This document shows positions 21,925 to 61,492 of a stretch of 64,000 bases of DNA, piece by piece (the stretch's first letter is position 1; each line of letters starts with the position of its first letter). This stretch comes from Chitinophagales bacterium (GTDB lineage: Bacteria > Bacteroidota > Bacteroidia > Chitinophagales > JANQFB01). Below the pieces are notes generated by a model. It was not told the origin of the DNA. It made no database searches and was given only the letters and a program-made list of their open reading frames with translations. The DNA lies in contig JANQFB010000055.1 in the NCBI GenBank assembly GCA_028278085.1, forward strand, positions 3,806 to 67,805, written 5' to 3'. The translations under genes were made by a program, and so were the position numbers.

Positions 21925-24162
21925 ATGAATTTCACTATAGGTAAAAGAATCGGGGCTGGGTTTGCTATTCTCATCATACTCACCAGTGTCGTTTTTACCC
22001 TCACCAATTATACCCTTAATGAAAGTAAAGAAATAAATGATGCCATAACCACCATTTATAACCCTTCTATTACTGCCCTCGAAGACCTTAATATCGTTAT
22101 TGTACGGTCTAAAATGCTTATCAACAATTGGGTTTTCATTCAAAGCGGTGAAGACAACATCTACAAAACCCAACTGCGAAACCTCATAGGGGAGGAGTAC
22201 CCGGCAAAAAAAAAAAGAACGCTTGAGCTATCGGAAAATTGGCCGGAGCACCAGAAACTCCTGATCGATACCATCACTAACCGGATCGAAGAATTGTTCA
22301 GCTTACATGAGGAGATCATGATGCAGTTGAATTCTTTCGAAAGCTATGAAGATGCTATGGTGGTATTCATGATCAATCCCATGATCGAAGAAAACGGGGA
22401 AGTAGATGTCGCCACGAATGAGATCCTCAGCAAGCTCCAGTTCCTCATCAGCCGCCAAAAGGAAGAGAGTACCATGTTCACCACCCAAATGGTGGAATCG
22501 TTCAGTCTCCTCCAGTTAGTGGTACGCGGGTCGGGTATCTTGCTGGCGATCGGGGGTATCATCATTGCCCTGATCACCACACGGAGTATCGTCAACCCGG
22601 TCAATCAACTGAAAACCATTTTGCTGAAACTGGGTAAAGGCTTGTTCCCCCAGGAAAAGATCACCAAACGTTCCGACGAGATCGGCGAAATGTCGGAAGC
22701 GCTGGAAGACCTCGTAGCCGGGTTAAAACGAACCACCCAATTTTCCAACCAGGTCGGGGCCGGAGATTTCGAAGCGGAATTCGAACCCTTGAGCAGGGAA
22801 GATGTGCTTGGTCATGCTTTGTTAAAAATGCGGAATAACCTGAAAGACCTCACCTTCAAGCTCGAGCAGGATAAATTCAAGGTAAAACAGCATTCCATAG
22901 AGCTCAGGCAAAAAAACGATGAACTCGCCAAATTGTCTATTGTGGCCAGTGAAACCGATAATGCGGTAGTGATCGCTACCCCTGAAGGCCAGCTCGAGTG
23001 GGTCAATGCTGCTTTTGAGCGGATGTCAGGATTCACCCTGGATGAATTTATCGAGGAAAAAGGAAACAACATCATCGATACCAGTTCGACCGATAATATC
23101 GAAGCCCTGATCAAGGAAAGCATCGAGACGAAAAAATCAGTGGTTTTCGAGTCACTGAATTCCGCCAAAAACGGCCGGCAATTTTGGGTATCCTCTACCC
23201 TTACCCCGATTTTCGACGATACCAACAATATTAAGAAGCTCGTGATCATCGAGGCGGATATTACGGAACGGAAAACAGCGGAGGAGCTGATCCAGCGGAA
23301 AAATAAGGCTATTAAAGACAGTATCGTATACGCCAAAAGGATCCAGGAAGCTATTTTGCCCACCAAAGAGTTTATCAAGGAGGCGCTGCCCGACTCCTTC
23401 ATTCTTTTTAAGCCCAGGGATATTGTCAGCGGCGACTTTTATTGGTACAGCTCGTTAAAAGGAAAAAGTATTATTGCAGCGGTCGATTGTACCGGACACG
23501 GGGTTCCGGGAGCATTCATGAGCATGATCGGCAACTCCTTGTTGAATGAGATCGTTTATGAAAAAGGCCTGCTCAAACCTTCCGCTATCCTCGACAACAT
23601 GAAAACCGGTATTATCAAATCCCTGAAGCAAAAAGGAGAACGCGGGGAATCGAGGGATGGTATGGATATCGCCATTTGCGCCTTCGATCATAAAACGGGT
23701 ATGCTGGAGTATGCCGGCGCCTATAATCCCTTATATATCATCCGGGCCATCGATCCTGCCAACAAAAAGCCATTCAAAAGAACGGCATCATCGAAGGTAA
23801 TGGAGCCCGCAAAAATTGAAATGGATCCGGAAGCGACAAATGAAGAATTCAATTTGTATGAAATTAAGGCCGACAAACAGCCTATCGGTATCCACTACCG
23901 GAAATCCATCGAGCCTTTTACCAACCACAAAGTACAATTAGTCAAGGGAGATGCTTTTTACATCTTTAGCGATGGTTACCCCGACCAGTTTGGTGGTAAG
24001 CTGAACAAGCGTTTTATTACCAAACGCTTCAAAAAATTGCTCTTATCCATTCAACAGAACTCTATGGAAGAACAGGGAAAGATCCTCGAAAAGCACCACC
24101 TCGAATGGAAAGGGGGATTTGAGCAGAACGATGATATTGTGGTTATCGGGGTCAAATATTGA
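21925..24162 (+). CDS. Membrane sensor protein phosphatase: extracytoplasmic domain-HAMP-coiled coil-PAS-PP2C/SpoIIE
   Basis: Two TM segments flank a loop of about 170 aa. A HAMP-like region follows TM2 ('RSIVNPVNQLK...EIGEMSEALEDL'). A PAS-like region reads 'NAVVIATPEGQLEWVNAAFERMSGF'. SpoIIE motifs are 'SGDFYWYS' and 'VDCTGHGVPGAFMSMIG'. Confidence 0.8.
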   Translation: MNFTIGKRIGAGFAILIILTSVVFTLTNYTLNESKEINDAITTIYNPSITALEDLNIVIVRSKMLINNWVFIQSGEDNIYKTQLRNLIGEEYPAKKKRTLELSENWPEHQKLLIDTITNRIEELFSLHEEIMMQLNSFESYEDAMVVFMINPMIEENGEVDVATNEILSKLQFLISRQKEESTMFTTQMVESFSLLQLVVRGSGILLAIGGIIIALITTRSIVNPVNQLKTILLKLGKGLFPQEKITKRSDEIGEMSEALEDLVAGLKRTTQFSNQVGAGDFEAEFEPLSREDVLGHALLKMRNNLKDLTFKLEQDKFKVKQHSIELRQKNDELAKLSIVASETDNAVVIATPEGQLEWVNAAFERMSGFTLDEFIEEKGNNIIDTSSTDNIEALIKESIETKKSVVFESLNSAKNGRQFWVSSTLTPIFDDTNNIKKLVIIEADITERKTAEELIQRKNKAIKDSIVYAKRIQEAILPTKEFIKEALPDSFILFKPRDIVSGDFYWYSSLKGKSIIAAVDCTGHGVPGAFMSMIGNSLLNEIVYEKGLLKPSAILDNMKTGIIKSLKQKGERGESRDGMDIAICAFDHKTGMLEYAGAYNPLYIIRAIDPANKKPFKRTASSKVMEPAKIEMDPEATNEEFNLYEIKADKQPIGIHYRKSIEPFTNHKVQLVKGDAFYIFSDGYPDQFGGKLNKRFITKRFKKLLLSIQQNSMEEQGKILEKHHLEWKGGFEQNDDIVVIGVKY

Positions 24163-43723: not shown

Positions 43724-43816
43724 AACCCACCACCACAAAAAGCCCATGCGAAATGATGAAGGCCACCGATCTAAATCCTGAAAAATTTAAGAACCTGTCC
43801 CAAAACTAAAATTGGA

Positions 43817-45880
43817 ATGAGATTACTATTGTGCAGTTGTTTGCTGATGATACTCTTCGGGTGTAAATCCCAGAAAGGAGCGGGAGATAAGGAATATTCA
43901 CCCAAGCAAAACTTGAAATTCGCAGATCAGTTGTTCAATATGGGCAGCTACTATAATGCCATCGACTACTATGCCAAAGTCCATGAAAGTACGCCCGACA
44001 ACCCGCATGTTGCCTGGCAATTGGCGGAATCCTATTTTTTATCCCGGGATTATGTAAAGGCAGAAGAATGGTATAAAAAAACCATGGACCAGGCCGCGGC
44101 AAAATATCCGCTGGTCGGCTTCAAGTATGCCCAGGCCCAAAAGATGAACGGCAAATATGCCGAAGCCAAAAAATCCTTTACCAACTTTATCAAAACCTAT
44201 AAGCAGTCGGATGCCCAGAATTACAAGAAGATCGTAAGGGTCGAAAAAGAAGGCTGCGATTATGCCCTGGAAGCTCAAAAAAGCCCGGCTAATATCAAAA
44301 TGATCCACATGGACGAAAACATCAATGCGGCTTATACCGAATTCGCTCCGATGCCCATGGGTGATGATAAATTCTTCTATGCTACCCTGTATTCCGATTC
44401 CGTGATCGAGCTCGACGGAAAAAAGAATGTCAAACATTTCAGCAGGATCTTCCAGCTCGACCGGAATGGCGGTGAATATACCAACAAACAAAAATTGCCG
44501 CCGGCTATCAATGATAATAACTATCATACCGGCAACGGTACTTTTTCCTTTAACGGCAGCAAATATTATTTCACCAAATGCCAGCAGACCGAAACCGGTA
44601 AGGTAAATTGTGAGATCTATGTAACCAATTACAAAAAGGGTGATTGGGGTACCCCGGAAAAACTGGAGTTCAACATCAATATGGAGGGCTACACCAGTAC
44701 ACACCCAACGATCGGGCCCTATAAAAGAGGCGGGCAGGTGCTTTATTTCGTGTCTGACCGGCCGGGAGGTGTCGGAGGAATGGATATATGGTACTCGGTT
44801 ATTTCCCGCAACGGTAAAAAATACGGCGAGCCGCAAAATGCAGGCCGGAAGATCAATTCCCTGAGGGATGATATCACGCCTTATTTCGATAACAAATCCA
44901 AAACCTTTTATTTCAGCTCTAACGGCCGTGTCGGTATGGGCGGCTATGATATTTTCAGAACCGAAGGGATGATGAAAAAATGGACCAAGCCGGAAAATAT
45001 GGGTCCTCCTTTGAACACAAGGGTCGACGATATGTATTTCGTACCGGAGAAAAGCGGGCAGGGTGGTTACCTGGTATCCAACCGTCCGGGTTCCATTGCC
45101 TTGAAAAGCCCGACCTGCTGCGACGACATTTACCGGTTTGAATACCGCAATGTGATCAACGTTGCCGTTCAGGGTTATGTGTATGACGAAAGCGATCCCT
45201 CCAAAACGCCCATCAACGACGCCACCGTTTCGCTATATATCGCCAATTCGGAAGATGAAAGCGGAGAGCCCCTGGCGATCGCCTCGGAAATTACCAAAGA
45301 CGGCAACATGTATTTTTTCGACCTGAATCCTAACAAAGAATACAAATTAAGCGCCGCGAAAAAAGGATATTTCTCCGGTAAAAGCCTGTTCACCGATTAT
45401 GAAGGTGTCAGTACCATGGGCATTACACGCTCGGATACCTTCCGTGTCGATCTTTTCCTGAAAAAAATGGAATTGAATGTTGCTTACCGGCTTCAAAACA
45501 TCTATTATGATTTCGATAAAGCCACGCTGCGGCCGGAATCCATCAAGACCTTGGATTCCCTGTTGATCTTACTCCGTGAGCATCCTGCCATAAAGATCGA
45601 ATTGGGCTCCCATACCGATAGTAAAGGCAGTAATGAATACAACATCCAGCTTTCTCAAAAACGGGCGGAAAGTGTGGTGAAGTTCCTGATCAAAAACAAG
45701 ATATCACCGGAACGCCTGGTTCCCAAAGGTTATGGTGAAGAAGTGGCCATTGCCCCGAATTCCAATCCCGATGGATCGGACAACCCTGAAGGCAGACAAT
45801 TGAACCGAAGAACGGAATTTAAGATCATCGGAGAACTGGAAAATGTCAAATACATGGAACCCGGAGAGGAAGAATATTAA
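43817..45880 (+). CDS. PorE-like lipoprotein: TPR + TolB-like propeller + one CRD + one OmpA_C domain
   Basis: Lipobox 'ILFGC'. TPR-like helices. PD40-like runs include 'GGQVLYFVSDRPGGVGGMDIWYS' and 'KTFYFSSNGRVGMGGYDIFRT'. The CRD-like region is 'VQGYVYDES...ATVSLY'. The OmpA domain is 'LGSHTDSKGSNEYNIQLSQKRAESV...NRRTEF'. Confidence 0.8.
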   Translation: MRLLLCSCLLMILFGCKSQKGAGDKEYSPKQNLKFADQLFNMGSYYNAIDYYAKVHESTPDNPHVAWQLAESYFLSRDYVKAEEWYKKTMDQAAAKYPLVGFKYAQAQKMNGKYAEAKKSFTNFIKTYKQSDAQNYKKIVRVEKEGCDYALEAQKSPANIKMIHMDENINAAYTEFAPMPMGDDKFFYATLYSDSVIELDGKKNVKHFSRIFQLDRNGGEYTNKQKLPPAINDNNYHTGNGTFSFNGSKYYFTKCQQTETGKVNCEIYVTNYKKGDWGTPEKLEFNINMEGYTSTHPTIGPYKRGGQVLYFVSDRPGGVGGMDIWYSVISRNGKKYGEPQNAGRKINSLRDDITPYFDNKSKTFYFSSNGRVGMGGYDIFRTEGMMKKWTKPENMGPPLNTRVDDMYFVPEKSGQGGYLVSNRPGSIALKSPTCCDDIYRFEYRNVINVAVQGYVYDESDPSKTPINDATVSLYIANSEDESGEPLAIASEITKDGNMYFFDLNPNKEYKLSAAKKGYFSGKSLFTDYEGVSTMGITRSDTFRVDLFLKKMELNVAYRLQNIYYDFDKATLRPESIKTLDSLLILLREHPAIKIELGSHTDSKGSNEYNIQLSQKRAESVVKFLIKNKISPERLVPKGYGEEVAIAPNSNPDGSDNPEGRQLNRRTEFKIIGELENVKYMEPGEEEY

Positions 45881-48900: not shown

Positions 48901-49348
48901 CCTGGTAGCGAACGGCGGGATCGAATATTTATGGGAGCCCGGATCGAGTCTCGACTTTACCGATATTTCCAATCCAACTGCTACACCTGACTCCACCACG
49001 GAATACCAGGTAAAGATCGTGGATGCAAACGGCTGTAAACGGACACTGGACGTAACGGTCTTTGTGCTGGATCCGAATATTGTGGTACCCACAGCCTTTT
49101 CACCGAATGGAGATAAAACCAATGACATCTTCTATCCCATTTATATGGCCATCGAAGAACTTTATGAATTCAAGGTCTTCAATCGATGGGGTGAATTAGT
49201 ATTCGAAACCAATGTGATCGGTCAGGGCTGGGATGGAAAGTACAAGGGTGTACCACAGGAGATTGGAACGTATATGTTCATTATTAAAGCCAAAACCTTA
49301 CTGGATGAAGAAAGAGCCTTCGAAGGTAATGTGACCCTGATCCGGTAA
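45938..49348 (+). CDS. Large Cys-rich surface protein with T9SS type-B sorting domain
   Basis: Signal peptide, 1136 aa. The C-terminus is 'PTAFSPNGDKTNDIFYP...VFNRWGELVFET...GWDGKYKG...GTYMFII'. Confidence 0.8.
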   Translation: MKKNYYYILITALFMLCGQFTIAQQATLIFVQDFDIPQNSGAFDVNSPLGINNYGSNEWVINSEYDGQPIYMDTPPQDTIFDTIGNIAFPGGNYMHINDNTTFPQGATYNAANNSDQWTVMNNGGVCTYGYGEVLITFWYLSIGSPYGFGEVYYSTDGGANWNLTVNRDGETKYKDMDRWKYTEISMPQFVGHGNFLIAFRWINTNADTSGGGQIPFAVDDVMLVGINGDTTTPDQPSPAIIATSMSPTPVCHEDVNNPDITFAFTVTEPLCEGDYVIELSDSSCNWDNSFVFGILSNFVATPGNWVATGTGFLVPSSIPIGPCYCYRISRISNPTFVGTPSTICWEIIDCPDSTAIADTPAVLKDPIMNGSGAGTGTTFPTICMNSVIDVPFYSYGAYNPGNAYWLELSDSNGNFPANPPDTIGGPSGPNTQTYDPAIYPPPISPGSQSGKIPDDVPEGCNYYIRVNSTDPVIEGAIWGPFCIVNCDVETNQAQDFSVCVTDTDSVCIEIPYDINKFDPNIVYDPNNEFLFQVLDNQTMAVINEGVLGLELNTASGLMELCFPPFQQYLALPMEPKMYYVRVISSNGSDTTDQWGSLVRMTVTGISGWPITLTGDRDTIICPPNPRNPICLTVSSNWLSPTSQYQFEFSTGGSFTWRPPPGNAPQIPPHPPLPTICFNTDNFPEGWTSVTVQETAGPDCTGPVSNPVQFYIWNAAVTRDFDGDFDVCQGDTVTYTATFFEESNGWYHFEQNGGKVVNDYVPNTQIRVVWDSIGFGFFVSLTIIGDQCAGDQYIQKTVNVLPRTKADISGDTSVCHGETVSLRARNATTQFNNEYNWFYLDDTTTTLADSVDGDTVSILTLTPDTTTDLLLEVIYSPPDGCFDYDTFQLKVHKADVDADSIELCEGDTIPLVGSVNGAVSSVHWEPPTDLLYPDSLQAQTYTVDPITYKLIAEFGTGCSDTAEIAIDIIPTSFDISEDDTIAPGQQSFLVANGGIEYLWEPGSSLDFTDISNPTATPDSTTEYQVKIVDANGCKRTLDVTVFVLDPNIVVPTAFSPNGDKTNDIFYPIYMAIEELYEFKVFNRWGELVFETNVIGQGWDGKYKGVPQEIGTYMFIIKAKTLLDEERAFEGNVTLIR

Positions 49349-49379
49349 TAAGGCTTTTGGCGGCCTGTTATATATTTCA

Positions 49380-50432
49380 ATGTACAAACTTGAAGGTCTA
49401 GCTTTGTGTGGGAAGGTATGTTCAAGCGTGTTGCTGGCCCTGCTGGTTGGTTTGCTGATATCCGTTAAACCTGCACAAGCGCAGGATATACACTTTTCAC
49501 AATTCTATTTTTCCCCACTAACGGTAAATCCGGCACAAACCGGTTTCTTTAACGGCCGCTACCGGTTTGCCGCCAATTACCGGGATCAATGGGGATTTGT
49601 CCCCTTCCTCAAAACCTATGCCGCCAGCTTCGATGCCAAGCTGGTCAATAATCTATTCAGCTATGGTAATATCCTCGCGCTCGGGGTGTATATGTATGGC
49701 GATAATCCCGAACCGGGCCATATTGGCAGAACCGGCTTTTTTGGGTCAGCCGCCTATCATCAAACCCTGGGGGACAAAAACCACTATATTGCCGTGGGCG
49801 TACAGGGAGGGCTGCACCAGATAGGATTTGACCCCAATCTGCTGCGGTTCGGCGACCAGATCGTAAACGGCTCAACATCCTCCAATGAAGCGTTTAACAG
49901 CACCAATATTCAATTCACCGACATCGGGGCTGGAGCTTTATGGAATATCGTTCCTAATGAACGGGCCAATATTTATGCCGGCTTTTCTCTTTTTCACCTT
50001 AACAGTCCGGTCGTTAATTTTGCCAGCGGCCCGGCGAATACCCTGTCGATGAGAACAGTTATCCATGGTGGCGCCGCTATCAAATTAAATGACCAATTCG
50101 ATCTTCTGCCGGCCATCATGCTCATGAAACAAAGATCTGCCAGTGAACTAATAATGGGTGCGGCTTTACGTTACAACCTGGAAGATAATGCCGGTATAAG
50201 ATTTGGCAGTTGGTTCAGGAATTACAGAAATGCCGATGCTCTTGTTATTATGACTGCCCTCGACTATCAACGATTTATTTTTGGCCTCAGCTATGATTTC
50301 AATATCTCCTCCTTTAGCCGAGTCAGCAACGCGAGGGGTGGCTACGAAATATCGCTGATCTATACCGGCGGTGTGATCGTCGAATCCAAACGGAACCGTA
50401 ACAAAGGCCGGATCCCCTGTCCTATTTTATAA
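49380..50432 (+). CDS. T9SS membrane protein, PorP/SprF family
   Basis: Contains 'AQDIHFSQFYFSPLTVNPAQTGFFNGRYRFAANYRDQW'. It starts 31 nt after the cargo gene. Confidence 0.85.
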   Translation: MYKLEGLALCGKVCSSVLLALLVGLLISVKPAQAQDIHFSQFYFSPLTVNPAQTGFFNGRYRFAANYRDQWGFVPFLKTYAASFDAKLVNNLFSYGNILALGVYMYGDNPEPGHIGRTGFFGSAAYHQTLGDKNHYIAVGVQGGLHQIGFDPNLLRFGDQIVNGSTSSNEAFNSTNIQFTDIGAGALWNIVPNERANIYAGFSLFHLNSPVVNFASGPANTLSMRTVIHGGAAIKLNDQFDLLPAIMLMKQRSASELIMGAALRYNLEDNAGIRFGSWFRNYRNADALVIMTALDYQRFIFGLSYDFNISSFSRVSNARGGYEISLIYTGGVIVESKRNRNKGRIPCPIL

Positions 50433-51695: not shown

Positions 51696-51740
51696 GATCC
51701 GGAAGATTCTTCTGATCAATATAATTCGATCTTCCGGATC
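51696..51740 (-). terminator. Hairpin spanning the stop codon of the PKD/GEVED gene
   Basis: A perfect 12-bp stem, GATCCGGAAGAT (51696-51707) with ATCTTCCGGATC (51729-51740), and a 21-nt loop. No clear U-tract. Confidence 0.3.
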
Positions 51741-54700
51741 AACTGTTCTTTGCCCTGAACGATCTTAACAAGATAAATTCCCTTGGCCCAAGCCGACATA
51801 TTTACCGTGATATCGAAGCTTTCAGTGTGTTGTGATTGAAGCATGGTTTCACCCAATACATTTATCACGGAAAGTGAGATATCACCCTGGCCTTCGAACC
51901 GGTAAGAGAGGTTCAATTGACCCTGGGTAGGGTTCGGATAGATCCGGAGCTCGTTAACAGCAGCAGGGGCTCCGATCCCCGTCAGATCGGCAACTTGTAC
52001 GGCGGCTACTTTGAAATGGCTGCAGCCCTCATCATTTTCAACGGTTAACCTGACATTATAGGCGCCGGTCTCGGTATAGACATGGTCCGGGTGGACCAGG
52101 CTGGATGAATTGCCATCACCGAAATTCCAGTCGAGTTCGTCATAATCGTAGCTCTTATTTGTAAAGGATACCGGTTCGCCCACTTGTACCGGGTTGGGCG
52201 TGATCAGGAAATCGGCATAGTTGAAGGCCACCAGCACAGATTCGACCAGTGTATCGGATCCGTGGGTGTTGGTCGTTATTAAAGTAACGTCATAATGACC
52301 GGGCACGCTATACGTGTGGACCGGATGCTGCACGTTGGAGGTGGTGCTGTCTCCGAAATCCCATAACCAACTGCTGGCCTGGTTGATACTCTTATCGGTA
52401 AATTGCATTTCTCCGGTGCAATTACCGATATTTTCCGATTCAAAAGAAGTGATCGGGGGTATTTGGTTGCTGATCACGGTAACGGTATAATCTTCCACCT
52501 GTCCGTCGAAGGTAGTGGCACAGGGATCCGGTGTCATCAGCAGATCCGATGTGGAAGCCACACGCATCCGGATCGGGATATCATGTACTGTACCGCTGGG
52601 TACGGTGAAGTTCCCGTCATGATAGATGAATTTATCATCGGATGCAAGCACCAATTCGGTAACCGGATCGAAGTCCAGGCTATTATCATAATCGATCCAT
52701 ACCCTTACATTCTCATTGAGGAGCGTCCCGGTAAGTATGGAGATATCATAACTCACGCCTTCGATCAGGGTCGTTTTAGTATTGGTACAAGCCTGGTCAT
52801 AATAACCTTCCTGCATGCCATCTAATGTTACGTTATGGATCGTATTCAGGTGAACTTCGAATATCCCGACATTCGGGATCGCGTTGACTACGGCCGGCAC
52901 ACAATTGGGATCGGCGGCGCCGTAGTTGAAGTCGACATATTTATCCAGGACGATCGTATCGCAGCCATAAGGATTGCAAACGATCAGGCTTACCGTATAG
53001 CTTCCGGTATCGGGAAAGGCATAGGTATGGGAAGGATTTTCCTGGTTAGAAGTATTTCCATCCCCGAAATCCCACTCCCATGAGGTGGGGAAGTTGAAGG
53101 AATTATCGCTGAATTTGACCAGGCCACTGCAGGTATTCAGGGGTGTACCGGAAAAACCTGCTTCCGGGGGCAGCATATTTTCTTCGATGATCACACTATA
53201 ATCTTCTATCTGACCGGTCGTGATATTACCGCAAGGTGTGGGTGGTACACCGAATCCCCATTCCGACATTACGCGCATCCGAAGCAAGGTGTTGTAGGTA
53301 ACATTTTGCGGGAGCATGAGGGTACCCAGATGCGTTACCCGTTTCGGCTCACTGTCGAATACCATTTCCGCAGGATCGTCGAATACGCCATTATTATCGA
53401 AATCGATCCAGGCCCTTACATATTCGTCATAGGTCGGACCGGTAACCACCTTGATCGGCGTTGGAACGCCGGCGGTTATGGTGATAATTTGGGTGCATAC
53501 ATAATCCTGGTAACCTTCGATACCATTCCCGGAATTATGTTCGAATGTCGAATCAACCTGCACCTGGTAAATACCGGCATCGTTAAAATAACCGTTGTTC
53601 GGAATGCAGGAAGCTGCCGCCGGGCTGGCATTGGTTACTTCGATCAGGTCGGTTTTGGTCATGGTGTTCTGACCATGCTGGTTACTGGCCGTTAGCGTTA
53701 CGGTGTATACCCCTGTCGATATGTATGTATGTACCGGGTTTTGAAGATTGGAAGTATTCCCGTCCCCAAAATTCCATAGCCAGGTATCCGGAAAGTCTAC
53801 CGAGCGGTCCTCAAAATTTACGGTCAACGATCCGTTACAGGCCAGGGTATCGGAAACCGTGAAATCCGCAACCGGAGGATCGGTAATCTGTTTGACGACG
53901 ATATTATCGATATACACGCCATTACCCATATCCGGGCCGCCGTTGTCATAAGCATAACGGCAACTGGATTCGAATTTAATTTCTACCACACCGCCCACAT
54001 AAGCGGAAAGGTCCAGGTTCTGGGTGATCCAATCGCTGGTGATCCCCTGGGGTTGATAGGTATTACCGATCTGGTTACCGTCGACAGTAACCCGGAAATT
54101 GGTATAATTATCGACATACTGGTAAATGAGTTTCAGATCGAAGATCAAGCCTAAAGAGGTCGCACTCGTGGCGTCGATACACAAACTTGCCGAGGCCAGG
54201 TGCTCCGGGTTCGTGGTAAATTCATTCCCTTGACTCGGGGTGATCCAGGAGGCAAAGGTGTTGCCACCCATAGCTAATCCGTCCGGCCCGGTTTTGGCCG
54301 CAACGCTGGTAACCCTTACTTCCGACTCGGTATTTTCGATCACGATGAAATCATCCAGGTCCGATGAACCATTCGGGAATGGCTGCTGATAGGGGATCCC
54401 TAACGAACTTCTGTATTCTACGAAATCTGTTCTTACCAGGGTATCATAACCGAAGGCATTGTGTGTGATCAGGGTAACGGTGTAAGTTCCCGGTGTGGCA
54501 TAGGCATGTGTAGGATTGGCTACCGTATCGGTATTGCCATCGCCGAAATCCCACATACGCTGGTCGATATCCCCGGCGGTGAAATCCATGAAGGTAAACG
54601 TACCACTGCAACTTTCCAACTGATCCACGCCAAAGGAAGTAACCGGTGGTATGCTGGCAGGGTCGCTTTCGAAACGCATATCAGGCCGGTTAACCGTGGG

Positions 54701-55291
54701 TGTATAGGCAAAAGTTGACGCACAAACAGTATTGGTATTGGTATAATAATAGCTGGTACCGCTGAAACCTGCAGGCGTAAAATAGATCTGGTCATTACCG
54801 GTAAAACAGGTATTGTTGAAACAGGTTTCAACGATCAGGTTGGAAATGCCGTCCCAATAAAATGGGCTGGTCAGCGTGTGAATATTCCAACCTACACTAT
54901 CGGTATGATCCTGCGGGCCCCAAACGGTTGATAAGCCGGTCTCGAAGTTATTGGTCAGGATGTCGACCGAGGTCAGCTTCATCTTGATGGTAAAATCATC
55001 CAGCGGAACCAATGATCCGCAATCACCGACACTTGTATTGGTCGCGAAGACATTGAATGCAAAAGTGGTAATGTCGCCAGGGGCCATACCTGCTGCTGCC
55101 AGTTCCGAGGCACGGATAAGGACCTGGTGCTTGGCGCCGTTGAACCAGTTCCCATAAGGGGAAGGGAACATAAAGCTACTGCTGATATTGGACCCATTGC
55201 CGATAAATACCGTATCGGTAGCCTGGCCAAACAGGGATACGGATACGAATAAGGCTATGATCAAAGCTGAGAGGTTTCGGGATTTTTTCAT
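51716..55291 (-). CDS. Multi-PKD / GEVED-domain protein with T9SS type-A sorting domain
   Basis: Signal peptide. At least five PKD motifs ('WDFGDGNT', 'WNFGDGNT', 'WEWDFGDGNT', 'WLWDFGDST', 'WNFGDGNS'). GEVED-like 'GQIEDYSV' and 'GQVEDYTV'. The tail is 'LRIYPNPTQGQLNL...GIYLVKI'. Confidence 0.85.
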   Translation of the reverse strand: MKKSRNLSALIIALFVSVSLFGQATDTVFIGNGSNISSSFMFPSPYGNWFNGAKHQVLIRASELAAAGMAPGDITTFAFNVFATNTSVGDCGSLVPLDDFTIKMKLTSVDILTNNFETGLSTVWGPQDHTDSVGWNIHTLTSPFYWDGISNLIVETCFNNTCFTGNDQIYFTPAGFSGTSYYYTNTNTVCASTFAYTPTVNRPDMRFESDPASIPPVTSFGVDQLESCSGTFTFMDFTAGDIDQRMWDFGDGNTDTVANPTHAYATPGTYTVTLITHNAFGYDTLVRTDFVEYRSSLGIPYQQPFPNGSSDLDDFIVIENTESEVRVTSVAAKTGPDGLAMGGNTFASWITPSQGNEFTTNPEHLASASLCIDATSATSLGLIFDLKLIYQYVDNYTNFRVTVDGNQIGNTYQPQGITSDWITQNLDLSAYVGGVVEIKFESSCRYAYDNGGPDMGNGVYIDNIVVKQITDPPVADFTVSDTLACNGSLTVNFEDRSVDFPDTWLWNFGDGNTSNLQNPVHTYISTGVYTVTLTASNQHGQNTMTKTDLIEVTNASPAAASCIPNNGYFNDAGIYQVQVDSTFEHNSGNGIEGYQDYVCTQIITITAGVPTPIKVVTGPTYDEYVRAWIDFDNNGVFDDPAEMVFDSEPKRVTHLGTLMLPQNVTYNTLLRMRVMSEWGFGVPPTPCGNITTGQIEDYSVIIEENMLPPEAGFSGTPLNTCSGLVKFSDNSFNFPTSWEWDFGDGNTSNQENPSHTYAFPDTGSYTVSLIVCNPYGCDTIVLDKYVDFNYGAADPNCVPAVVNAIPNVGIFEVHLNTIHNVTLDGMQEGYYDQACTNTKTTLIEGVSYDISILTGTLLNENVRVWIDYDNSLDFDPVTELVLASDDKFIYHDGNFTVPSGTVHDIPIRMRVASTSDLLMTPDPCATTFDGQVEDYTVTVISNQIPPITSFESENIGNCTGEMQFTDKSINQASSWLWDFGDSTTSNVQHPVHTYSVPGHYDVTLITTNTHGSDTLVESVLVAFNYADFLITPNPVQVGEPVSFTNKSYDYDELDWNFGDGNSSSLVHPDHVYTETGAYNVRLTVENDEGCSHFKVAAVQVADLTGIGAPAAVNELRIYPNPTQGQLNLSYRFEGQGDISLSVINVLGETMLQSQHTESFDITVNMSAWAKGIYLVKIVQGKEQLIRKIELY

Positions 55292-55807: not shown

Positions 55808-56539
55808 ATGAAACCTTTCATCCTAATCGTTCTGCTGCAGCTAGCGCTGTTCGGGACTTTTGCAGACAACAACAATACTTCCGTCAACTTTTTCCAGGCT
55901 GCCGATGCATTCCTGGCTAAAAACATATCCGACGGCCGTGTGGATTATAAAGGGATCAAACAAAAGCCACAGGAACTGAATAACCTGTTGGAATTGATCG
56001 CCAAGTATGACCTGGAAAAACAGCCGGCCAATACCCAAAAGGCTTTCTGGATCAATGCCTATAATATTTTGGTCATCAAAGGTATCATCAATCACTTCCC
56101 GGTGAAATCACCCATGGATATCAAAGGATTTTTCGATACGGAAAAAAGGTCCGCCGCGGGTCGCCAGATCACCCTCAACGATATTGAAAACAAAATGATA
56201 CGGCCGGTGTACAACGATGCCCGGATCCATTTCGTCCTGGTTTGTGCCGCAATCGGCTGTCCCCAAATTGTCAACTTCGCCTATATGCCCGAAAAGCTGG
56301 ATGCCCAGTTGGAAAAGCAAACCCGGATGGCCATGAACGATCCTCAATTTATTCGGGTGAATACCGCTGAAAAAAAGCTGGATGTTTCGGAGATCTTCAA
56401 ATGGTATAAAGAAGATTTTGCCGTGGACGGGAATAGCATCCGGGATTATGTGAATCAGTACAGGGATCAAAAAGTCCCGGCTGACTATGCTTTCGGCTTC
56501 TATACCTACGACTGGAACCTGAACATAAAAAAAAAGTAG
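55808..56539 (+). CDS. DUF547 domain protein (secreted)
   Basis: Signal peptide 'LIVLLQLALFGTFA'. Contains 'KAFWINAYN', 'RIHFVLVCAAIGCP' and 'IFKWYKEDF'. It ends '...YDWNLNIKKK*', at the same relative point as the paralog at 60692..61492. Confidence 0.8.
   Translation: MKPFILIVLLQLALFGTFADNNNTSVNFFQAADAFLAKNISDGRVDYKGIKQKPQELNNLLELIAKYDLEKQPANTQKAFWINAYNILVIKGIINHFPVKSPMDIKGFFDTEKRSAAGRQITLNDIENKMIRPVYNDARIHFVLVCAAIGCPQIVNFAYMPEKLDAQLEKQTRMAMNDPQFIRVNTAEKKLDVSEIFKWYKEDFAVDGNSIRDYVNQYRDQKVPADYAFGFYTYDWNLNIKKK
56530..56536 (+). promoter_or_regulatory. Candidate -1 frameshift slippery heptamer A_AAA_AAG (inside an A9 run) immediately before the DUF547 stop
   Basis: The zero-frame codons are ATA AAA AAA AAG TAG. 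Slipping -1 on A_AAA_AAG reads GTA GCC CGG..., which is the 284-codon open frame that follows. Confidence 0.35.
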
Positions 56540-57390
56540 CCCGGGAGAAAGCCGACAGTCTTTCCGTTGCGATCAATCTTCAGGCTTATACCCCATCCGT
56601 ACTGCTGAAACCGGATCAGTGGGAAGCTAAGCTCTTTAACAACCTATATACCCAAACACAGGTCTTCAATGCTTCCGGAGCCAGGATCGATGCCAATGCC
56701 CGGGGCACTTATTTCAGCGGGATCTACCAGTTCCTGTACGGACTGGATCCCTCGGTAAATATCGGTTTTGACCTGTGGCTGAAATCCGTTCGGATCGATC
56801 AGCCGGGCAGTTCTCCTTTTGATCTTTTCCGTTTTGAAATCAGCACGAATACCCGAACCGCCATATCCGGCTGGGGGCCCAAGATCAAAATAGCGCCCTT
56901 TAAAAAACTAAACAATCTTTCCATTCAAAGCACCTTATTGTTCCCCATCGCCGGCGACCTCGAAGGCTCGGGTAGCCCGGAAGGTAATAATAATGACAAG
57001 CCCTATCTCGAAGCAGACCGGTATTTGTGGTTGACCCAGCTCTTTTATGACCAGGAACTGGGAACGGATTTCCGGCTTTTTCTGCAATTCGCACCATGGA
57101 TCAACATCGACCGTCAATGGGATTTCGACCAAAGCTACGTTGCCACGCCCTTGAGCGCCTTTTTATCCTTTTTTCCCAACCGGCTTACCACGCTTTACCT
57201 GATGAACGAGATATGGCCCACCTATGGCACGATGTTTATCAGCTCCTATTTCAACCAGTCAGGCCTGGGCGCCAAATACCAGTTGATCCCCGGTAAACTG
57301 GAATTGGAGCTCTTGTATACCCGCTTTATCGTCGGAAAAAACAGCGGCGCCGGTGAAACATACAATTTCGGGATAAGGATTATCAACTAA
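56536..57390 (+). CDS. Start-less ORF, beta-barrel-like protein. It is either a fusion partner of DUF547 (frameshift or A-run length) or a 5'-truncated gene
   Basis: The frame is open from 56485 to 57390, but the first ATG/GTG/TTG is at 56938. The upstream 130 codons look protein-like ('GTYFSGIYQFLYGLDPSVNIGFDLWLKSVRIDQ'). There is no signal peptide. The C-terminus is 'ETYNFGIRIIN'. Confidence 0.4.
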   Translation, partial: VAREKADSLSVAINLQAYTPSVLLKPDQWEAKLFNNLYTQTQVFNASGARIDANARGTYFSGIYQFLYGLDPSVNIGFDLWLKSVRIDQPGSSPFDLFRFEISTNTRTAISGWGPKIKIAPFKKLNNLSIQSTLLFPIAGDLEGSGSPEGNNNDKPYLEADRYLWLTQLFYDQELGTDFRLFLQFAPWINIDRQWDFDQSYVATPLSAFLSFFPNRLTTLYLMNEIWPTYGTMFISSYFNQSGLGAKYQLIPGKLELELLYTRFIVGKNSGAGETYNFGIRIIN

Positions 57391-57617: not shown

Positions 57618-57625
57618 TAGATTTG
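57618..57625 (+). promoter_or_regulatory. Candidate -7 promoter box (TAGATTTG)
   Basis: The motif overlaps the track's TTG start at 57623, which argues for the ATG at 57713 as the real start. Confidence 0.3.
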
Positions 57626-57712
57626 TACCATTCATCACATTTTCCTGCCCCGTTCAAATACTTAATAACCCTGCCATTATCAATTAACCGGCTCCAATTT
57701 CAAATCAAAGCT

Positions 57713-60499
57713 ATGGAATCTATCAGCAATAACAAACGAGAGCAAATACTACGGAAACTTACGGCCTATTCTTCACTGGCAGCTACTTTGACCGGTATAA
57801 GCCATGAAACCAAAGGTGCAGTTATATACACGGATATCGATCCTGATTCCGTATTCATGCAATCCGGCGACGCTTACGAGCTTGACATTAACCACGATAA
57901 TACACCCGATTTTAAGCTCAGCATGTATTATCATTCCAACACCTATTCCTATTGGCTGGTCAGTAAATACATATCCATCGAAGGATTGAATTCCAATGAG
58001 GTCATCGGTCACTTTTCATCCTCGATGAATCCTTGCAGTTCACAATTCTCCGCCTATATGGCCGATAAGCTCAGCAGCGGGGTACTGATCGATAGTGGCC
58101 AGAATTGGGAGTCCGGCAATAACAGGCTCACCAATATCTTTGCCCATTCCCTATGCAGCACTAATGTTAATATGGGTTCCTGGCTGGGCGAACAGGATCA
58201 ATATCTCGGATTGAAAATTTTGGTGAACGGACAAGCCTATTACGGCTGGGCCAGGCTCGATGTAGCTGCTGACAGTAAATCCTTTACCCTTAAAGATTAT
58301 GCCTACGAAAACGCTCAAGGCATGCCCATACCGGCGGGCGCATTGTCTTCCCCATATCCTTTCCCGGCTACATCGGTTGTCGCTAATGACATCGACAATT
58401 TCGGTGACGGCAGGGATATGGAGATCCGTTTCGATAAAGTCATGGATGAAAATACCATAGATCATTACCGGGTTATGGTCGTAAAAAGCGCTAATCTCGC
58501 ATCCTTCGACCTGGCTACGGCCGGTGCCGTTCCCGGGGGTAATTACACTCACATCGCCAAAACCGGCGTCAATATCGTTGACACGCTATCCGCCGGAAGC
58601 CTGGACGTAGACGGAGATCCCATCACGACCGGGGTGCCTTATAAAGTATTGGTATTAAGTGTCGGCGACGGTATTATTTCAACCGGTAATACCTTGTCCT
58701 TACCTTCTAATGATATAACCCTGGGAATACCGGCAGATCCGGTGATGAACATCCAGGTGGCGGATGTGGGTGATACCGGAGACGGTCGCGACCTCCAAGT
58801 AAGTTTCGATAAAGCACCGGATGAGAATAAGGTTGCCGGCTACCGGGCCGTGGTGGTAAAATCTCCGGATACCTTGAACTTCGATATGGCTGTCGCCAGG
58901 CAGGCCTTTACCAACGGGTTTTATAAGGATATTGCCAAAACGGGCGCTGACATCAGCATTACCCTTGCTGCCAGTACCAGAGACATCGATGGTGATACCG
59001 TTGGAACGGCCATCCCTTACAAGTTATACATTATTACCATGGCAGATGGGATCAATGCAAATGTCGATGTATTAGCCGGACCATCCCCGGAGATCACTTT
59101 ACAAACGATCTCCTCACCGGTCGACAGTATTATGGCTTTTGATATCGGAGACAATGGAGATGCTTCGGACCTACAGGTTACCTTCGACAAAGCTCCCGAC
59201 GAATCCAGGGTAAAATGGTACGATATTTATGTGGTTAAGTCTGCCAATGCCGGTAGTTTCGACAAAAATGCAGCTTATGCCGCCCAGGATTTTAGCCGGG
59301 CTTATAAAACAGGTTCGAATATCAATTATGTATTACCCTGGTATGAAAGGGATACGGACGGAGACAATATTCACATGGGCCAGCCCTATAAAGTTTTTGT
59401 TTTGTCTGTGGCCGATGGGTCTTATGCCACTATCGATACACTTTCCGGACCATCCAATGAGATCATATTGACCACTAATTCACCGGATAGTGTCAAAAAT
59501 ATCATGCCAAGCGATGTGGCCAATTATTTTGATGGCCGGGACATCAAGGTTACTTTTGATAAAGTAAACGATGAAAGTGAGATCGGGGAATACCGCTTAT
59601 TTATGACGACATCTTTTGATGCGCCGTTCGTTGACCTGAACTACGCAAACAATCTCAGCCCCTCTCAATATAAGGTCGTTCCAAAAACAGGCAATAATTT
59701 ATCCGTTCAACTGGATTCCACCTTTAAGACCGGCAGTGGTGCTTCCATCCAAGGCTATACAAACTATAATATTTTTGTCCTATCCGTTGCAGATGGCGTA
59801 AATACCACGAGTAATCAACTATCCTCACCCTCCCCTACTTTTGAATTAACCGATAACGGGTCTGCTAACCCGGTAACCATTACTAATGTACAAGATGCTA
59901 CGGACTTTCATGATGGAAGGGACCTGGTGGTCAGTTTTAACAAAGCCGATGCGGAAGAAGATATCGAAACATACCGGATCATTGTGGTTCCAACAGCGAA
60001 TGCAGCAACATTTACTTTAGCAGATGCCGAAGCGCTGGCCTCCGATCGTTATTATGAAGCTGCTAAAACCGGTCAAAATATCATGACTAACCTGGATGAC
60101 CAGGTAAAAGACTCGGAAGGTAATGCCATTGTCGAACAAACAGCCTACCAGCTATTTGTTTATTCCGTGCCCGACACTTTCAAGATAGCTTCAGGAGCGC
60201 TTTCTTTACCTTCCCAGGAGATTGCCTTATCATCGGTGACCGGTTATCGTAATTTAAATAAAGGGGTACAGGCTCCGGAGATCTTTGCCAGCGGCAGGTC
60301 GGTAACCGTTCGCAGCAGGCATTCGGACCTGGTACCAGAATCTTTAACGATCTGGAATGCTATGGGGCAGCAAGTTTATCAAACCTATTCCATTGGCGCC
60401 ATACAGACCATCGATCTGTCCCATGCAGCAAGCGGTATGTACATTGTTCAAGTGCGATGGAAAGGGTTTGATGTTCAGCGAAAGGTAATTCTGCATTAA
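57713..60499 (+). CDS. Repeat-containing surface protein with T9SS type-A sorting domain
   Basis: N-terminal 'KLTAYSSLAATLTGIS...VIYTDIDPD' and '...YYGWARLDV'. Five units of about 125 aa. The tail is 'LTIWNAMGQQVYQ...ASGMYIVQVRW'. Confidence 0.8.
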   Translation: MESISNNKREQILRKLTAYSSLAATLTGISHETKGAVIYTDIDPDSVFMQSGDAYELDINHDNTPDFKLSMYYHSNTYSYWLVSKYISIEGLNSNEVIGHFSSSMNPCSSQFSAYMADKLSSGVLIDSGQNWESGNNRLTNIFAHSLCSTNVNMGSWLGEQDQYLGLKILVNGQAYYGWARLDVAADSKSFTLKDYAYENAQGMPIPAGALSSPYPFPATSVVANDIDNFGDGRDMEIRFDKVMDENTIDHYRVMVVKSANLASFDLATAGAVPGGNYTHIAKTGVNIVDTLSAGSLDVDGDPITTGVPYKVLVLSVGDGIISTGNTLSLPSNDITLGIPADPVMNIQVADVGDTGDGRDLQVSFDKAPDENKVAGYRAVVVKSPDTLNFDMAVARQAFTNGFYKDIAKTGADISITLAASTRDIDGDTVGTAIPYKLYIITMADGINANVDVLAGPSPEITLQTISSPVDSIMAFDIGDNGDASDLQVTFDKAPDESRVKWYDIYVVKSANAGSFDKNAAYAAQDFSRAYKTGSNINYVLPWYERDTDGDNIHMGQPYKVFVLSVADGSYATIDTLSGPSNEIILTTNSPDSVKNIMPSDVANYFDGRDIKVTFDKVNDESEIGEYRLFMTTSFDAPFVDLNYANNLSPSQYKVVPKTGNNLSVQLDSTFKTGSGASIQGYTNYNIFVLSVADGVNTTSNQLSSPSPTFELTDNGSANPVTITNVQDATDFHDGRDLVVSFNKADAEEDIETYRIIVVPTANAATFTLADAEALASDRYYEAAKTGQNIMTNLDDQVKDSEGNAIVEQTAYQLFVYSVPDTFKIASGALSLPSQEIALSSVTGYRNLNKGVQAPEIFASGRSVTVRSRHSDLVPESLTIWNAMGQQVYQTYSIGAIQTIDLSHAASGMYIVQVRWKGFDVQRKVILH
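58367..60240 (+). repeat. Five tandem coding repeats of about 372-381 nt (about 125 aa)
   Basis: The core motif 'GDGRD(L/M)x(V/I)xF(D/N)K..DE..(I/V)..YR..VVKS' recurs at about 58403, 58778, 59156, 59528 and 59909. Array boundaries are approximate. Confidence 0.75.
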
Positions 60500-60691: not shown

Positions 60692-61492
60692 TCACTGTCC
60701 ATTCAACCGCCAGTCGTATTCCAAATATCCTATCATTGCGGTGGATTCAATTTTAATCCTACTGTACTGGTTCAAATAGCCCGGCAAAGAAAGGTCATGC
60801 GTAAAGTCCCCCTCATACCAACCAAATATTTTCGATAGGTTCACGGCCATGGCACCGATCTGATTTTTGGCCGGATCATTGATAAAATCCCTGGCCTGAT
60901 CTTCCAATTGATGATCCAGCTTTGTAGCAGTATAGGCTTCATTTCTCAACTTGGGGCAGGACATCGCCGCACACACCAGGGCAAAATGGATCCGGGGTTC
61001 ATTAAAATGGCTGCGGATCATTCCATGCTCGATATCATTCAGGTCCATCAATTGTCCGTTGATCCGGATAAACCTGATATCCCAGGCGGAATAAACAAAG
61101 GGGATATTAAAAGGCAGGATCTTTTTGATCCCGTAATAAGGATCGAATCGTATGATCAGTTGTATGGTAAAGGCATTATAGGCATTGATCCAGTAGGCCA
61201 GGATCTCTTTGTTCGTCCAGTTTCTTGGGTTCGGAGCATGCTGCGACAAAAGATCCAGGTAACGGTTCAGGTTGACGCTGTCCCGGGCAAAGCCTTCATA
61301 ATCGACCATACCGGCATCATCGACGTAGGTTTTTAACAAGCTATCCCAAACCTGGTGGGAAATGGGATGGCTGCCCGGATCCGGGTCGGGCCGGTCAAAA
61401 CAAGCCGAAAAGCCGGCAGACAGCAGGATAATACTCCACCCGATGATTGGGGTACGAAACAACATATTCCTTAAACAATGGATCGACGCCAA
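60692..61492 (-). CDS. DUF547 domain lipoprotein (paralog of 55808..56539)
   Basis: Lipobox 'LSAGFSAC'. Contains 'ILAYWINAYN', 'RIHFALVCAAMSCP' and 'IFGWYEGDF'. The ATG at 61465 is an alternative start. Confidence 0.8.
   Translation of the reverse strand: MASIHCLRNMLFRTPIIGWSIILLSAGFSACFDRPDPDPGSHPISHQVWDSLLKTYVDDAGMVDYEGFARDSVNLNRYLDLLSQHAPNPRNWTNKEILAYWINAYNAFTIQLIIRFDPYYGIKKILPFNIPFVYSAWDIRFIRINGQLMDLNDIEHGMIRSHFNEPRIHFALVCAAMSCPKLRNEAYTATKLDHQLEDQARDFINDPAKNQIGAMAVNLSKIFGWYEGDFTHDLSLPGYLNQYSRIKIESTAMIGYLEYDWRLNGQ

Follow-up and report, generated by a model that had tools for sequence, protein, structure and literature searches.

The question raised by this locus is whether a short gene for an exported DUF547 protein and the open reading frame (ORF) that follows it in the −1 frame, which lacks a start codon, should be read as two genes or as one. 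Both lie within positions 55808–57390 of a 64,000-nucleotide stretch of DNA from a Chitinophagales bacterium (GenBank assembly GCA_028278085.1, contig JANQFB010000055.1), which was analyzed as a whole and is referred to below as the window. On the basis of sequence comparison we consider it quite probable that the two are a single recoded gene, in which a conserved, programmed −1 recoding event yields a long DUF547-barrel fusion in addition to the short DUF547 protein. The features of the gene and of its junction, in window coordinates, are as follows.

55808..56539, + strand: zero-frame ORF of 243 amino acids (aa) with a signal peptide and a DUF547 domain (ORF list; Pfam), ending ...YDWNLNIKKK and stop
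55808..55864, + strand: N-terminal Sec-type signal peptide MKPFILIVLLQLALFGTFA, with D as the next residue (from the translation; putative cleavage site)
56527..56535, + strand: homopolymer of nine A residues (A9), the sole A9 of the 64-kb window (sequence reading and homopolymer audit)
56527-56533, + strand: A_AAA_AAA, overlapping the A_AAA_AAG heptamer
56530..56536, + strand: in-phase slippery heptamer A_AAA_AAG (from the sequence), recurring in the same phase in the related loci L168, L171, L172 and L173-L179
56537..56539, + strand: zero-frame stop codon TAG, abutting the heptamer; the −1 frame reads these bases within GTA-GCC
56536..56574, + strand: −1-frame linker VAREKADSLSVAI between DUF547 and barrel, aligning with the linkers of in-frame fused homologs
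56544..56565, + strand: weak hairpin remnant, stem GGAGAAAG / CUUUCC and loop CCGACAGU, at the site of the strong hairpin of the relatives
56575..57390, + strand: −1-frame predicted outer-membrane beta-barrel domain (NLQAYTPS...GIRIIN and stop), from homologs, AlphaFold, Foldseek and conserved positions

Re-reading of the sequence placed the end of the DUF547 ORF (terminal codons ATA AAA AAA AAG TAG), the A9 run, the phase of the heptamer and the stop codon where they had been reported in an earlier note on this DNA, which was made from the sequence alone. The same is true of the −1 frame, which is open from 56485 to 57390 (302 codons) and in which the first ATG, GTG or TTG is a TTG at 56938, 134 codons inside the barrel region. 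As read from the ORF list and the −1 translation, the barrel is missing both a start codon and a signal peptide of its own. The upstream ORF scores 87.5 bits with the Pfam model of DUF547 (PF04784), above the gathering score of 27 (E=8.9e-25), and homology in the zero frame extends through YDWNLN, to position 56524. Because of that endpoint, and because the stop codon begins at 56537, the change of frame is confined to 56525-56537 (ATAAAAAAAAAGT). The conceptual fusion is 527 aa long, with the junction ...NIKKKVAREK... in the region ...YDWNLNIKKKVARE. An identical 243-aa product (cluster P0241) has been recorded in assemblies from NCBI as well as from Logan. The window also contains a DUF547 paralog outside the recoded gene (60692..61492, − strand; PF04784, E=2.5e-30), which ends ...LEYDWRLNGQ and stop, at the equivalent YDW.LN position as previously described. 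Since this paralog is a stand-alone gene, the short DUF547 protein can be regarded as a complete unit.

The downstream ORF gave no matches in Pfam or NCBIfam. Its best homolog in a protein cluster search has E=2.6e-102, and an AlphaFold model built with 47 homologs is a closed beta-barrel, with a predicted local distance difference test score (pLDDT) of 92.9 and a predicted template modeling score (pTM) of 0.87; the initial description of this frame as protein-like and rich in beta-strands was therefore well founded. The nearest structure in Foldseek is the COG4313 outer-membrane channel 4rl8 (E=3.7e-11, template modeling (TM) score 0.65-0.71, 11-12% identity), and comparison with FapF gave a TM score of about 0.6. 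The modeled barrel clearly falls in the COG4313 / FapF fold class and is a candidate member of that family. It keeps 70 of the 70 positions that are conserved at ≥85% among 28 homologs.

Members of the barrel family occur in three contexts: as stand-alone genes, as the second gene of a pair (DUF547 then barrel), and fused to DUF547 in a single ORF. The stand-alone barrels P0001-P0006 all carry their own signal peptide and have no DUF547 gene nearby; among them is P0001, the best single match to the barrel of the window (59% identity). When the conceptual 527-aa fusion was used as the query, the best 120 clusters consisted of proteins of 473-640 aa that cover 90-100% of this query (one covers 45%), and the window fusion is collinear with the fused homologs through the linker. 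Genome and metagenome scans recovered 122 loci in which both domains are adjacent. In 75 of these the two domains are fused in frame, and in the other 47 they are split. Every one of the 47 split loci has a barrel with an ATG or TTG and a classical signal peptide of its own, and the DUF547 ORFs of split loci end 2-3 codons past YDWxLN. These scans turned up no start-less junctions, and their ranking by best tblastn segment probably favors uninterrupted genes. They contained no close relative (best identity 53% in genomes and 46% in metagenomes). In the homolog search that had been proposed for the downstream ORF, some homologs are fused to DUF547 and others, stand-alone or split, have a signal peptide of their own.

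Four barrel homologs (P0016, P0024, P0038 and P0059) begin inside the conserved N-terminal motif and have no signal peptide. Their loci show the junction arrangement of the window, as listed here with the contigs on which it was read (MAG, metagenome-assembled genome).

L168 (CP058647.1, a complete genome): ...YDWTLNEKK and stop, GAA AAA AAG TAA; −1 frame KK-VIREKEVQ...NIQTYTPS
L171 (CAYUTX010000155.1): GTA AAA AAG TAA (A6)
L172 (Logan SRR24874947): GAA AAA AAG TAG
L173-L179 (two Cytophagales MAGs and five separate SRA runs): identical GAA AAA AAG TAA

Each of these loci has an in-phase A_AAA_AAG, an abutting zero-frame stop codon (TAA or TAG) and a start-less barrel in the −1 frame, which is itself closed by a stop codon right 5′ of the A run. 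The A runs of the relatives are A6-A7, compared with A9 in the window. The relatives are 48-55% identical to the window gene in DUF547 and 48-51% in the barrel, and the linker of the window also aligns with VIREKEVQ... of L168; L168 and L173 share 91% nucleotide identity. The junction of L173-L179 comes from independent samples (seven assemblies listed of 14 contigs). Conservation of the heptamer, for which the earlier note had suggested a check at orthologous loci, was found in four further distinct sequences. In a neighbor-joining tree of 122 barrel domains the start-less relatives and the window fall into one clade, and a profile of the short DUF547 forms returned as its best 12 clusters P0240-P0251, all of which end YDWxLN[E/V/I]KK(K). 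Compared with L168, the window carries an extra AAA codon, yet the heptamer phase and the stop codon are both kept, an argument for taking A9 as the real length of its run. Gene callers start the barrels of L168, L171 and L173-L179 at internal ATGs, giving products of 238-264 aa that begin within the conserved ...YTPSVLLKKGQWE... motif. Because these called starts appear to be spurious, the public annotation of this clade would be systematically wrong.

The pair L168 and L173 was close enough for a comparison of nonsynonymous and synonymous substitution rates (dN/dS). The ratio is 0.177 for DUF547 in the zero frame and 0.175 for the barrel in the −1 frame; the barrel region read in the two wrong frames gives 1.03 (first) and 3.85 (second), and the excess of synonymous changes in the barrel is significant (binomial p=8e-12). 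From this purifying selection we infer that the barrel is translated in the −1 frame. Under the Sec/BAM route of biogenesis, an outer-membrane barrel depends on a signal peptide to arrive at its membrane. Since its own initiation codon and export signal are missing, the barrel would be made and exported only as a continuation of DUF547.

The relatives carry a second signal in addition to the heptamer. Their stem-loops begin 5-6 nucleotides (nt) past it, with the following minimum free energies (MFE) and z-scores against 200 shuffles.

L168: MFE −15.0 kcal/mol, z −3.4
L173: MFE −13.7 kcal/mol, z −2.8
L171: MFE −16.0 kcal/mol, z −3.1
L172: MFE −23.1 kcal/mol, z −3.85

In 4 of 4 relatives no other 45-nt window of the entire 1.4-1.6-kb gene (approximately 1,400-1,550 windows) is as stable as the hairpin after the heptamer. 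Across 40 homologs fused in frame, the equivalent site ranks at a median percentile of 0.18, with 0.007 as the lowest, and never reaches the gene-wide minimum. The stem sequences vary by lineage; with four sequences, stems of differing length and loops that cannot be aligned, counts of covariation would carry little meaning, and the MAFFT alignment misaligns the A runs. A heptamer, a spacer of 5-6 nt and a hairpin constitute the canonical layout for −1 programmed ribosomal frameshifting (PRF) (PMC1851650, PMC4066793).

Taken as one recoded gene, the locus would be expressed as follows. Standard decoding would give the 243-aa exported DUF547 protein, ending at the TAG after the slippery sequence. 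In a fraction of expression events a −1 shift on A_AAA_AAG or on the A9 run would carry translation through a 13-residue linker into the roughly 270-residue outer-membrane beta-barrel, and the result would be the 527-aa fusion, for which the DUF547 signal peptide would be the only one; both products would be needed. The programmed frameshifting that the earlier note had listed first among its explanations is thereby supported by the conserved junction, the purifying selection on the barrel and the 3′ hairpins of the relatives.

In the relatives the shift is most likely ribosomal, because their A runs are only A6-A7 and a strong hairpin follows 5-6 nt after the heptamer. Runs of A6-A7 are shorter than those at which polymerase slippage is thought to matter, and in many bacteria selection against slippage sets in at A9 (PMC1088944); the run of the window reaches the threshold of approximately nine or more for programmed transcriptional realignment, and the A6-A7 runs of the relatives do not. 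In the window lineage the hairpin appears to have degenerated and the run to have grown to A9, so the shift there may be ribosomal, may result from the addition of one A by RNA polymerase, or may be both, with transcriptional slippage a route as viable as ribosomal slippage. Every route (a ribosomal slip on A_AAA_AAA or on A_AAA_AAG, or one A added by the polymerase) yields the same protein.

Several observations weigh against a single programmed gene. At the DNA level the junctions amount to five distinct sequences (the window and four others), of which L168 and L173 are close kin, and the remaining eight clusters ending LN-x-KK(K) are inferred from protein C-termini alone. The neighbor-joining tree, which has no bootstrap support values, puts the stand-alone barrel L001 inside the frameshift clade. 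This gene (ena ERZ27249683 k141_548163, 2407-3303) encodes the closest barrel to that of the window (59% identity), has its own signal peptide and is not preceded by DUF547; its nesting reflects either a barrel that became independent in that lineage or an artifact of the tree. The heptamer by itself is not diagnostic, because it occurs in phase at two other sites in the approximately 33 kb of coding sequence of the window.

56370-56376, in the same DUF547 gene: GCT GAA AAA AAG CTG
~44419, nt 645 of ORF 43775..45880: ordinary coding sequence

The weak hairpin of the window, which the earlier note had pointed out, is not significant. It lies at the site of the strong hairpin of the relatives and its approximately 6 base pairs match the upper stem and ACAGUC loop of L168, but the GGG/CCC lower stem has been lost; it is no better than shuffled sequences (z = +1.0, +0.3, +1.25 and 0.0) and stands at the 45th percentile of the 45-nt windows of the gene, and larger structure there is not significant either. 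No GGAGG- or AGGAG-like Shine-Dalgarno element was found upstream of the heptamer of the window (CTACGACTGGAACCTGAACAT), and Rfam gave no matches, including to its dnaX element, in the window or the relatives. In an organism that has tRNA-Lys(CUU), less slippage would be expected on A_AAA_AAG; there are no tRNA genes within the window. The longest homopolymer of the window, an A11 at 22206-22216, lies in frame (..PAKKKRT..) in an intact gene for a 745-aa HAMP/PAS/SpoIIE-phosphatase protein (21925..24162), and because the genome tolerates it, very efficient slippage by RNA polymerase is mildly argued against. Finally, in-frame fused homologs have comparable runs at the same linker position, namely A10 in L006 (NKKKRV) and L167 (NKKKI) and AAA AAA AAG (A8G) in L166 (NKKKP). 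Since these are the closest in-frame homologs, a change from A10 to A9 would be a trivially easy accident.

These runs lead to the alternative that survives best, which we regard as unlikely: a non-programmed interruption of a fused gene. An in-frame A10 (ATA AAA AAA AAA GTA GCC) would then be the true or ancestral sequence, A9 would have arisen by under-calling in sequencing or assembly or by the recent loss of one base, or would be a phase-variable tract in its OFF state, and any fusion would be made by incidental leakage. The A10 and A8G runs of L006, L167 and L166 fit such an event, as do the at least 120 single-ORF fusion clusters, the 75 of 122 loci with in-frame fusions, and the barrel itself, which is undecayed as expected of an error or a very recent change; homopolymers are hotspots for indels and errors (PMC1088944). 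What speaks against it is that the same out-of-frame layout, heptamer phase and abutting stop codon recur in the clade of the window at A6-A7 runs, which are not error-prone, and that these relatives have a dedicated hairpin at canonical spacing and a barrel on which purifying selection acts although their genomes have the shift. The junction is moreover identical in seven assemblies from independent samples, the product of the window comes from two assembly sources, and no other gene of the window is broken at a homopolymer (a window-wide audit found none, and overlapping pairs of ORFs are separate intact genes). The possibility of an erroneous run, raised in the earlier note, is disfavored by the A6-A7 runs, the seven assemblies and the agreement of NCBI and Logan. 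A sequencing error or simple pseudogene is the reading suggested by the fused family, by the 75 fused and 47 split loci that included none without a start, and by the in-frame A10 of L006, the closest genome match; it is overturned by the same junction in the start-less barrel loci.

Far less probable is a two-gene operon, as in Flavobacteriaceae, with the barrel translated from a non-canonical or internal start (for example by termination-reinitiation at AAG-TAG). Genuine two-gene arrangements do account for 47 of 122 related loci, and in the relatives gene callers do predict barrels of 238-264 aa that begin at internal start codons. All 47 of those split barrels, however, have their own start and signal peptide, and the window and its clade have neither; the called starts fall within the conserved N-terminal strand region, a barrel lacking a signal could not reach the outer membrane, and the −1 frame of the relatives is stopped right 5′ of the A run. 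The notion of a decayed, 5′-truncated remnant of an independent barrel gene, which was also among the original explanations and for which the many stand-alone homologs with signal peptides (P0001 included, at 59% identity) could be cited, is effectively refuted by the intact 302-codon frame, the 70 of 70 conserved positions kept, the collinearity with fused homologs through the linker and the dN/dS of 0.175 in relatives with the same arrangement.

Programmed recoding of one gene thus remains the reading that we prefer. A broader and much more doubtful proposal, which we put forward tentatively, is that a clade-wide −1 frameshift sets the ratio of free periplasmic to barrel-tethered DUF547, and that a gene pair, a plain fusion and a recoded gene are three interchangeable solutions across the family. 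The lineage of the window would then have swapped an A6-7 run with a hairpin for a hairpin-less A9, moving toward slippage by RNA polymerase in a manner that parallels E. coli versus Thermus dnaX.

Further candidate junctions were seen among DUF547 proteins. Twelve clusters of short DUF547 proteins (P0252, P0255, P0266, P0275, P0277 and P0279, and likewise P0283, P0299, P0310, P0312, P0334 and P0348) end a few residues past KKK, with C-termini such as ...LNDKKKV[R/K/H], ...LNEKKKP and ...LNQKKK, and may represent further recoded or interrupted junctions. A different interrupted junction is present in L169 (JBUDRJ010000113.1, L169:1040-1200) and L170 (Logan SRR33304591), where the linker ends in an A10 run: the zero frame reads ...ETEDDTKKKTLNFRL and stop, and the −1 frame TAA AAA AAA AAC ATT, corresponding to KKNIELSTLTPSF, so that a −1 shift or an extra A is needed. 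A strong hairpin was not found after this A10 run (−7 kcal/mol). The junction may be either an error or a slippage site in its own right, and the two assemblies may share reads.

Neither Pfam nor NCBIfam has a model for the barrel family, whose loci (L004-L165) span Bacteroidota, Calditrichia, KSB1 and Rhodothermales MAGs. DUF547 carries an invariant H-F-x-L-x-C-x-A-x-x-C-P motif. A gene for a protein of approximately 412-432 aa follows the DUF547-barrel gene at several loci that are not related to one another (L166:3445-4707, L169:1906-3177, L004:4702-6000 and L005:1926-3164), with a match to a POTRA domain in L166 and a weak one in L169. Its recurrence at this position suggests that it may be a conserved partner of the DUF547-barrel gene. 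In the window this gene is not found downstream of the DUF547-barrel gene, where a type IX secretion cargo gene lies instead, and the recoded gene is surrounded by genes of type IX secretion, which assign the window to Bacteroidota.

49341..50432: PorP/SprF-family protein
51716..55291, − strand: 1191-aa PKD/GEVED-repeat protein with Por_Secre_tail
57623..60499: 958-aa repeat protein with a weak Por_Secre_tail

Outside mobile elements and phages, few bacterial chromosomal genes are known to have a confirmed −1 programmed frameshift, namely dnaX, cdd, copA, csoS2 and members of a small number of GeneTack families (PMC3711429, PMC4066793). If the gene described here is recoded as proposed, it would combine a classical heptamer with a structure-only stimulator in a phylum that largely ignores Shine-Dalgarno sequences, and would offer a natural system for −1 PRF without them. 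It would also provide a clue to the function of DUF547, for which the literature searched holds passing mentions only, none of them bacterial or mechanistic. Because DUF547 is fused to, adjacent to or recoded with an uncharacterized 12-14-stranded barrel in hundreds of genomes, the two likely cooperate at the outer membrane, and the Rosetta-stone link between them (fused in 75 loci, adjacent in 47, or alone) suggests that DUF547 works with an outer-membrane channel. Annotation would need correction, since pipelines split such loci into a short DUF547 gene and a ‘hypothetical protein’ truncated at its N-terminus, and comparison of the window (A9, hairpin-less) with its relatives (A6-7, strong hairpin) may show how ribosomal and transcriptional recoding interconvert.

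The locus shares features with several known systems. With E. coli dnaX (tau/gamma) it has in common the identical in-phase A_AAA_AAG and one gene with two nested products, and the dnaX hairpin stands at 5 nt, compared with 5-6 nt in the relatives (PMC1851650). It differs in that the shifted product of dnaX is short, whereas the shifted product here is a long fusion; in that dnaX needs an upstream Shine-Dalgarno-like stimulator, of which none was found here; and in that the window has no significant hairpin and no Rfam frameshift element matches. Ribosomes of Bacteroidia generally do not use Shine-Dalgarno sequences (PMC10798248). Because an upstream Shine-Dalgarno element is missing, Bacteroidia largely ignore such elements and Rfam has no matching family, the label dnaX-type, given to the site in the earlier note, does not apply in the strict sense.

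Systems that rely on transcriptional slippage resemble the window in other respects. T. thermophilus dnaX has an A9 run, equal to that of the window (PMC1088944), and C. rodentium tssM1 (A11) and Shigella mxiE both need an extra A for the full-length product and have a stop codon just past the run. In tssM1 the A11 run gives two length variants, the longer product being rescued at about 20-25% (PMC4256274), and efficiencies of about 15-55% have been reported for transcriptional slippage at A runs (PMC1088944, PMC4256274). The relatives of the window differ from these systems in their A6-A7 runs and 3′ hairpins, which point to the ribosome.

Neither a DUF547 nor a Bacteroidetes case appears in the main text or two supplementary files of Antonov et al. 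2013 (PMC3711429), or in one part of the Atkins 2016 recoding review. The GeneTack genes of the former study (magnesium chelatase, DUF111) are similar to the present one in having conserved frame transitions and homologs that are plain fusions elsewhere; 22 Bacteroidetes genomes were analyzed in that work, and fused homologs were used as an argument for recoding (PMC3711429). In the OrfA/OrfAB genes of the IS3 family (IS911) and in lambda G/GT, as proposed here, the zero frame gives a short, presumably abundant protein and the −1 frame a longer fusion with an identical N-terminus; the IS3-family shift takes place on a heptamer rich in A, in many cases A_AAA_AAG with a hairpin after it (PMC4066793), and G/GT is mentioned in PMC4256274. 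Those are genes of mobile elements or phages, whereas the present one is a chromosomal envelope gene, and its DUF547 and barrel also exist in other lineages as separate genes or plain fusions.

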